Below are positions 21,072-21,934 of a stretch of DNA of 64,000 nt, in pieces. The position numbers and the translations under genes are program-made. The notes under the pieces were generated by a model that did not search any database, was not told where the DNA came from, and saw only the letters and a program-made list of their open reading frames with translations. The DNA is from Longimicrobiales bacterium (GTDB taxonomy: Bacteria; Gemmatimonadota; Gemmatimonadetes; Longimicrobiales; Gaopeijiaceae): contig OZ242008.1 in NCBI GenBank assembly GCA_965204735.1, forward strand, positions 3,648,001 to 3,712,000, written 5' to 3'. The number at the start of each line of letters is the position of its first letter. Position 1 is the first letter of the stretch.

Positions 21072-21560
21072 TCAGGCCTCGTCTGGGCAGTTCCAGGGAC
21101 CCGGTTCACCAAGCATGCTTTCCAGACATTCGTCGCTTTCTGATTCTTCGTCCGGGTTGGCGCCTCCTCCACCACTACTGTCGTTCTCGGCCTCCTGATA
21201 GTAGAGCGATGTCGTGCAGACTTCCCACCAGAGCCAGCCAGCGCACGTCTCGTACTCCCAGCACAAGGCATCCCAGCCACCGCCGCAGCCTGCCGGCTGC
21301 GCCCACGCTGGCTGGAAAGCCGTGTCCTCTATGGCCTTGATCAGCGACATCGCAGCCAATATCCCCAGCCCAGCTCGGGTTAGGCCGTCTGCTACGACGG
21401 GCGAGACCCGCTTGTGGCCGAGTAACCTCAGGATCCGGTGTGCTGGCGAAATGTCGGCCGCGAATGCCTCTCCGCCTTTGCGTGCTTGGCGATCGTTGAC
21501 TCGGAGGGTGACGCCGACCAGGACAACAGCCGCTACGCCCAGGATGATCAGAACGGACAT
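21072..21560 (-). CDS. Secreted Cys-rich peptide precursor B (162 aa)
   Basis: RBS AAGGGGAG; two hydrophobic segments, AWA-Q cleavage site, core CGGGWDALCWEYETCAGWLWWEVCTTSLYYQE, acidic tail with two more Cys. Confidence 0.75.
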   Translation of the reverse strand: MSVLIILGVAAVVLVGVTLRVNDRQARKGGEAFAADISPAHRILRLLGHKRVSPVVADGLTRAGLGILAAMSLIKAIEDTAFQPAWAQPAGCGGGWDALCWEYETCAGWLWWEVCTTSLYYQEAENDSSGGGGANPDEESESDECLESMLGEPGPWNCPDEA

Positions 21561-21685
21561 GATTCTCCCCTTGTTGATGAGTATGCCTTATGAACTCGGG
21601 CAACGTGATCACCCGACCGCGGTACGTCTGATGACGATCCGGATTCCAGCCACTTGGAACACGCTCCGCCAGGACATCGGCAAGA

Positions 21686-21934
21686 TCATGATCGCTCCTG
21701 AAAGAAATAGTGTCGCGTCTTGCACGACCGGTTCATCCACAGGAAGTCTATCCCCGTGCAGACCTTGATCGTCATGCAGGTCGGCGGCGTTTCGCCGCCG
21801 CAGACACCCGGCGGGTGATGCTGTGCTGCGATCGGCGACACGCGGAACTCCGTTGCCGCCACGGCGATAATCGCCAGTGCAGCTAGCCCGCGCGCCAGCT
21901 TCGAGACTGTGTTTCGCCCGCAGTTCTTCTTCAT
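21686..21934 (-). CDS. Secreted Cys-rich peptide precursor A (82 aa)
   Basis: ATGA overlap with the propeller gene, RBS AGGAG; MKK..signal peptide..IAA-Q, core CGGETPPTCMTIKVCTGIDFLWMNRSCKTRHYFFQE; Cys spacing shared with precursor B. Confidence 0.8.
   Translation of the reverse strand: MKKNCGRNTVSKLARGLAALAIIAVAATEFRVSPIAAQHHPPGVCGGETPPTCMTIKVCTGIDFLWMNRSCKTRHYFFQERS

Follow-up and report, generated by a model that had tools for sequence, protein, structure and literature searches.

Secreted disulfide peptides accompanied by an oxidoreductase are known from the sublancin operon, with BdbA and BdbB, and from E. coli STb, with DsbA and MacAB-TolC. In Bacteroidota, NVEALA small proteins (PF14055) sit beside six-bladed propellers of the DUF5128 type, and class IIb two-peptide bacteriocins combine a double-glycine leader and a peptidase-ABC exporter with always two complementary peptide genes. 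Protegrin and tachyplesin, beta-hairpin antimicrobial peptides of animals, are cationic and disulfide-stapled. A thioredoxin-like (Trx-like) domain is combined with a six-bladed NHL propeller in NHLRC2, the family of which is marked by the motif CC(I/V)NC and has bacterial homologues reported outside conserved operons (excerpted text of PMC6107167); in Arabidopsis SOQ1, electrons flow from the Trx-like domain to two C-terminal Cys, C1006 and C1012, spaced by five residues (excerpted text of 10.1101/2024.11.01.621559). The locus analyzed here, from a Longimicrobiales bacterium of the phylum Gemmatimonadota, encodes two small four-Cys peptides, hereafter A and B, which are members of an unnamed family in an undescribed module. 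No description of the family or of its cassette was found in the literature searched, which covers few subscription journals and no supplements, so that a small-protein catalogue elsewhere could list the family, and the content of PMC12419801, as far as its excerpt goes, is unrelated to these peptides.

Within the window, that is the whole stretch of 64,000 nucleotides that was analyzed, the locus occupies about 3.6 kb (20055..23703) and is flanked by the genes of an SLT transglycosylase and of a DUF885 protein. Its GC content is 0.62 against about 0.70 in the surroundings (GC3 0.69-0.77 against 0.89), and the same SLT and DUF885 genes lie 21 bp apart in genome G001, which has the empty site; the stretch is therefore considered an inserted islet. 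The operon reads thioredoxin-like gene, propeller lipoprotein, A and B, all tightly coupled. Convergent with it lies an AraC-like helix-turn-helix gene (20335..20946, forward strand; HTH_18 at E 6e-6, under the curated cut-off), an optional part that is present at 3/65 loci examined and has relatives beside cassettes in only two other genomes. No sigma-70-like promoter was found at the islet, where terminator-like sites are at shuffle level and Rfam recognizes no family (one chance match, E 0.23). Contigs from two sponge metagenome runs of one study cover the islet at about 96% identity, and no RNA datasets containing it are listed. Neither plasmids nor metagenomes, the latter scanned with a single propeller protein, yielded a relative of the propeller. 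At its left edge (20136-20197), the islet holds an element of about 60 nt with an internal CTTGGTTGTCGCT-like repeat, of which the source genome has four further copies and G002 two; it has no Rfam match and could be the end of a mobile element or a regulatory site. Elsewhere in the window, two paralogous long ORFs with Ig-like starts (25428-27368 and 28026-29963) carry a HELGH motif, which we take to be metalloprotease-like.

The gene of peptide A (21686..21934, reverse strand) encodes 82 residues, a Sec-type leader (1-37) being followed by a 45-residue mature part that would form the four-Cys hairpin core. Mature A, predicted to run from Gln38 to the end (21689..21823, reverse strand) after a cleavage site deduced from the sequence, has a Cys spacing of 7/5/11 and a net charge of +2, including three His. 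A ribosome-binding site is present, and the ATG overlaps the stop codon of the propeller gene (ATG/TGA). The sequence-only reading of this DNA had regarded A as buried in a longer spurious ORF call (21686..22459), correctly so: the part of this 257-residue call upstream of 21934 (21935..22459, reverse strand) lies outside peptide A and is an artefact, because it shares nucleotides with the propeller gene, read there in another frame, and its GC values at the three codon positions (0.67/0.60/0.49) are not those of coding DNA. The gene of peptide B (21072..21560, reverse strand; 162 residues), in which a ribosome-binding site also precedes the ATG, encodes an N-terminal membrane helix, a basic linker, a weak second hydrophobic stretch, the four-Cys core and an acidic tail that carries a third Cys pair. 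The core of mature B (Gln88-Glu123; 21192..21299, reverse strand) shows the consensus spacing of the family, 7/5/8, and a net charge of -5, the whole of mature B reaching -17. Since the leader of B has 87 residues and two hydrophobic stretches, the strong N-terminal helix and the weak second one, its cleavage site is less certain than that of A. The ESM Atlas gave no usable match for B.

Both ORFs, both cores, their Cys spacings and the signal-peptidase-like sites (IAA-Q in A and AWA-Q in B) are present in the sequence as that reading had quoted them; of the basic and acidic cores that it contrasted, B is indeed acidic, but A is only mildly basic. A and B are real paralogues, but the shared pattern by which they had been joined matches, as written, A only, since in B WLW follows directly on G. 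Its elements CGG and [FW]LW are common in the family but not invariant, the invariant part consisting of the four Cys and the Tyr six residues after C4. A six-frame scan of the 4.14 Mb genome for C-x7-C-x5-C-x(6-14)-C-x(3-6)-aromatic pair matched only A and B, and of 20,000 shuffles one reached the score of their alignment. When a profile was built from 22 homologues, none of them from the source genus, it placed B at the top (E 4e-8) of 24,355 ORFs and A directly below (E 1.3e-3); word-indexed homologue searches returned for A only a copy with 93% identity (P0006) and for B only B itself.

A glutaminyl cyclase (PF05096, E 4e-87), encoded in the genome far from the islet, makes an N-terminal pyroglutamate cap, also proposed earlier, plausible for A and B, but the cap is no family-wide trait: both peptides have A-x-A-Q, and [AS]Q precedes C1 in only 53/143 homologues. 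Across the source genome, a crude predictor finds Gln enriched after A-x-A (20% versus 2.4%). A Q-rule for signal peptidase I substrates, with Gln at position +1, is described in PMC5837995, the excerpt of which does not mention Gemmatimonadota. Identification of the propeller itself with a glutaminyl cyclase was rejected; the cyclase gene sits elsewhere in the genome.

Searched against 1.84 billion representatives, a profile of 26 cores matches at least 175 clusters (E<=0.001), at least eight of the matches being the seed rows themselves and all being biased to this Cys spacing because the profile was seeded with it. The family consensus is C-x7-C-x5-C-x8-C-x3-Y-x-Y-[YWF]. The Cys pattern is kept by homologues, for 143 of the 148 new clusters listed fit the four-Cys pattern, with x7 between C1 and C2 in 121 of the 143, x5 between C2 and C3 in 138 and a C3-C4 loop of eight residues in 88. 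Nearly all family precursors have 64-120 residues, and their leaders show a hydrophobic stretch (140/143), a basic n-region (135/143) and an x-X-A site (135/143), Sec features that favor the proposed export of the peptides. The number of Cys in the tail is 0, 2 or 4 in 140/143, as expected if all Cys pair. None of ten clusters looked up has a name beyond 'hypothetical protein'; Pfam recognizes no family in A, B or the 26 cores (NVEALA, PF14055, in 0/26), NCBIfam gave two weak single-member matches among 122, PDB had no match for the peptides, and no relative was found on viral contigs. By analogy, the peptides resemble a secreted disulfide peptide with its own oxidoreductase, but belong to no family tested.

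A search that scored only some candidates per genome located members of this family in 27 of 401 Gemmatimonadota genomes, spread over five families; all 13 named records with close members come from the same phylum. Comparison of 12 orthologous pairs gives dN/dS values of 0.25 (core), 0.22 (leader) and 0.28 (tip), the last value resting on 11.5 synonymous and 14.5 non-synonymous differences, and five propeller pairs give 0.27. A value of 1.41 in the C2-C3 strand was not called as selection, as it rests on 2.5 synonymous differences. This purifying regime indicates that the peptide genes are real and conserved and that their variety comes from old paralogues. The loops previously described as hypervariable are so between paralogues (mean core identity 36%) but not between orthologues, and the dN/dS comparison across homologues then suggested gives no sign of diversifying selection.

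The two-disulfide beta-hairpin proposed earlier gains support from the paired Cys counts and from covariation. Among the 77 members with canonical spacing, mean MI-APC is highest, of 13 antiparallel registers, for i+j=49, in which C3 and C4 face each other, and charges at two cross-strand pairs are anticorrelated (r=-0.39, 2/20,000 permutations; r=-0.36, 6/20,000), the permutations being uncorrected for relatedness among the rows. In the same register, a near-invariant Tyr (71/77) faces C2. The four tip positions are 73-96% hydrophobic, and the loop between C1 and C2 is Gly-rich. From these features we infer bonds C1-C2 and C3-C4, a conserved base and an apolar tip. The C2-x5-C3 segment looks like an extended strand, and the covariation pairs C3 with C4, not C2 with C3.

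The propeller gene (21931..22974, reverse strand) encodes a lipoprotein of 347 residues with a lipobox-like LLGAC, the profile of which matches NHL propeller structures (TRIM71 at E 2e-37); Pfam NHL and DUF5128 matches occur among its relatives, the latter in 3/19. The membrane-anchored thioredoxin-like protein (22975..23526, reverse strand; 183 residues) has one invariant Cys and an invariant Thr-Pro: C76, T141 and P142 do not vary in 21 aligned rows and correspond to the N-terminal active-site Cys after strand 1 and to the cis-Pro loop of thioredoxin-fold oxidoreductases. Rows of the cassette type have their single Cys in [DE]-C-x-x-x; the sole CxxC row (L080), with which the 183-residue protein aligns, is of a different type and itself a weak AhpC-TSA/Redoxin match. 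Neighbours of the protein in the ESM Atlas are Thioredoxin_2, Redoxin and AhpC-TSA proteins (0.92-0.93); the 136-145 features that it shares with them fall short of the 170 usual between members of one family. Since neither Pfam (no match) nor PDB (best 3gl3, DsbE-like, weak at E 0.31) gives a significant match, the thioredoxin fold is likely, not proven, and is argued for by the motifs and the language-model match.

The association of these genes was evaluated from loci picked by each component, some of the named and metagenome contigs overlapping with earlier locus sets and related loci not being independent. Among 40 propeller-picked loci, 14 have a thioredoxin-like gene, always together with an exported Cys peptide (14/14); the other 26 include one Cys peptide found by script and one more just past the distance limit, and 25/40 have neither peptide nor thioredoxin-like gene. 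A propeller accompanies 21 of 25 thioredoxin-picked loci, and all these 21 have a Cys peptide, 13 being of the A/B family by profile. At 16 peptide-picked loci, from which we left out L198, a one-Cys protein of another kind, the next gene encodes a one-Cys protein in 10, a DsbA-like CxxC protein in three and neither in three; a propeller is present in 11. At named genome loci, all of Gemmatimonadota, peptide and thioredoxin-like gene are neighbours in 13/13, always in the order peptide then thioredoxin-like, with the propeller in 12/13 (the last one ends at a contig edge), and 5/6 metagenome loci agree. The tightest pair is therefore the peptide with the thioredoxin-like protein. In a quick tree, stand-alone propellers are scattered among those of cassettes, forcing at least seven changes. 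Cassettes contain one, two or, as in G597, three peptides; an RND-type efflux adaptor adjoins five loci, and no exporter is found in the A/B islet or in most loci. G514 has a cassette copy broken by an IS (L077:2600-4160), which splits the first peptide gene just before C1; this gene also carries an early stop, and the second peptide is intact.

Several variants of the cassette were encountered. Loci L193, L195 and L196 belong to a six-Cys subfamily that is related to the A/B family (hhalign 94.9%) and shares its first loop and its Tyr strand; a true DsbA-like CxxC protein fills its thioredoxin-like slot, beside a DUF5128-like propeller. An unnamed small membrane module of about 150 residues, with no Pfam match and absent from the source genome, is found at many loci (L188, L190, L183-L185, L143-L148, L186-L187) after the propeller, fused to its N-terminus, or beside peptide and thioredoxin-like gene without propeller. 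The leader of B was considered as a form of this module and rejected, as the profile of the module matches nothing in the source genome. That genome has 58 propeller-like ORFs and a second cassette (L017, G000:C1:1969000-1973500) in the order thioredoxin-like, propeller, peptide, thioredoxin-like, peptide; its peptides have three Cys, C-x7-C and an MH[YF] end, with no C3-C4 pair, and their homology with A and B is not established (hhalign 9.9%). Exported Cys-rich mini-proteins with other Cys frames lie beside distant propellers on the same contig (70531-70755, 896497-899590 and 1871849-1872395), and a close propeller paralogue follows sigma-factor-like and small helix-turn-helix-like genes, labelled by eye, at 194300-198300, where a second propeller but no peptide is present.

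Like NHLRC2 and SOQ1, the cassette would pair an NHL propeller, to which the structure match of its lipoprotein points, with a Trx-like fold that conserves the cis-Pro position, and it has a Cys-bearing third part; as in SOQ1, the cassette parts would be non-cytoplasmic and membrane-tethered. On this likeness the main rival reading is based, namely that thioredoxin-like protein, propeller and peptide constitute a split SOQ1/NHLRC2, with the peptide as a resident redox-active subunit, in an envelope unit that would repair or sense oxidized envelope proteins. The C2-x5-C3 spacing, the most fixed of the peptide family, would then recall the Cys pair of SOQ1, and the reading also agrees with the pairing of peptide and thioredoxin-like gene, which are duplicated together in the second cassette of the source genome, and with purifying selection on all parts. 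However, the Trx-like and NHL parts that form one chain in NHLRC2/SOQ1 are separate genes in the window and at all loci read, a free exported peptide takes the place of the C-terminal domain, and the thioredoxin-like protein has only one Cys, no CC(I/V)NC motif and no profile match to either protein. None of the 45 PDB matches of the propeller profile is named NHLRC2 or SOQ1, and the cassette genes form a conserved operon, unlike the bacterial NHLRC2 homologues of the PMC6107167 excerpt. The strand-like x5 segment and the covariation of C3 with C4 also speak against a redox pair formed by C2 and C3, and a housekeeping role would not need two to three divergent peptides per operon or a patchy spread. 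On balance, we consider this redox unit somewhat unlikely.

Signalling, with the peptide as pheromone or identity tag, the propeller as receptor, the AraC-like protein as output and stand-alone propellers as eavesdroppers, appears decidedly unlikely. Such a system would suit a small neutral ligand with a variable tip, propellers that repeatedly detach from the cassette and the AraC-like gene beside three cassettes, but this gene is missing at 62/65 loci, no membrane transducer or kinase recurs among the neighbours, and one propeller accompanies several very different peptides. The sequence-only reading had also raised the possibility that A and B form a two-peptide complex through their opposite charges. 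In its obligate form, comparable to class IIb bacteriocins, this is very improbable and is left unsupported by the frequency of single-peptide loci, even though the genes are adjacent and co-oriented, A is at +2 and the B core at -5, and two-peptide loci are common: only one peptide is found at 12/13 named genome loci and at 6/6 metagenome loci (several of which end at contig edges), G597 has three, and pairs elsewhere have the same sign or are neutral (e.g. -8/-6, -3/-1 and 0/0). Moreover, the leaders are of Sec type, a double-glycine leader (GG/GA before C1) occurs in 0/143, and recurrent neighbours include no peptidase-ABC exporter. That the peptides might be cationic, membrane-lytic hairpin antibiotics like protegrin or tachyplesin, with which they would share a two-disulfide hairpin and aromatic residues at the tip, is hardly credible, since the family is not cationic (median mature charge -2, 1/143 at +3 or more, tails acidic in 92/143). 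One disulfide of the scaffold, moreover, would close an N-terminal loop instead of forming a second rung.

We tentatively favor, with slightly less than even confidence, the reading that the islet is a module folding and releasing a hydrophobic-tipped binding peptide, in effect a unit devoted to the production of small binding peptides for export, of which A and B would be two independent paralogues. Parallels are sublancin and STb, in which a peptide gene is likewise accompanied by a thioredoxin-fold protein bound to the membrane; export through Sec and oxidation in the periplasm would follow STb, but the cassette has another scaffold, an extra propeller lipoprotein and neither modifying enzyme nor peptidase-ABC exporter. 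NVEALA proteins are likewise small, Cys-rich, exported and next to a six-bladed propeller lipoprotein, and DUF5128 is matched by 3/19 of the propellers analyzed here, but their Cys frame and phylum differ and none of the 26 peptides matches PF14055.

In this production unit, the precursors would very probably pass through Sec and signal peptidase I, the extra N-terminal helix of B keeping it in the membrane until cleavage, and the N-terminal Gln may be cyclized by the general glutaminyl cyclase of the cell. Bonds C1-C2 and C3-C4 would then probably form, the strands from C2 to C3 and from C4 to the Tyr building one long antiparallel hairpin, with the Tyr opposite C2 and the Gly-rich C1-C2 loop closing its base. 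As suggested by gene linkage, the membrane-anchored one-Cys protein may trap the peptide as a mixed disulfide and sort its bonds, and the lipid-anchored propeller may bind the conserved base as a chaperone, holder or self-protecting receptor; since peptides with no more than 25-30% likeness share a single propeller, recognition of the common base is more likely than recognition of the tip. Our guess for the last step is that the tip, with its apolar WLWW (B) or FLWM (A), attaches outside the producer to a membrane or to the hydrophobic pocket of a target, different tips perhaps having different targets. The Sec-like leaders, the hairpin covariation, the linkage seen with each of the three components, the RND-type adaptor adjoining five loci, the patchy, islet-like spread (27/401 genomes), the empty site of G001 and the IS-broken copy of G514 favor production. 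Against it stand the lack of an exporter in the islet and in most loci, purifying selection on orthologous tips without an arms race, the neutral to acidic net charge, the 25/40 propeller-picked loci without peptide and thioredoxin-like gene and the 3/16 peptide-picked orphans; a four-Cys peptide, moreover, may hardly need its own foldase.

An extension of these ideas, which we consider unlikely, is that the cassette is a natural peptide-display platform, in which a constant handle on a split thioredoxin/propeller machine presents or releases a swappable tip. The handle, consisting of the C1-C2 loop and the Tyr strand, would be loaded through a mixed disulfide, and it recurs with four-Cys, six-Cys and other interiors. 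If this were true, Gemmatimonadota would possess a phylum-wide, knottin-like repertoire of binders, and free propellers would be orphan receptors or immunity proteins. These abundant bacteria are for the most part uncultured, and few of their secreted products are known. The family provides at least 175 distinct cores of 35-45 residues that can be synthesized and have their partners encoded adjacently, so that function is testable without culturing; its hairpin would be a compact, neutral scaffold that tolerates changes at the tip, and the cassette a separable bacterial model in which to ask what a Trx-like domain does together with an NHL propeller, a question also posed by human NHLRC2.
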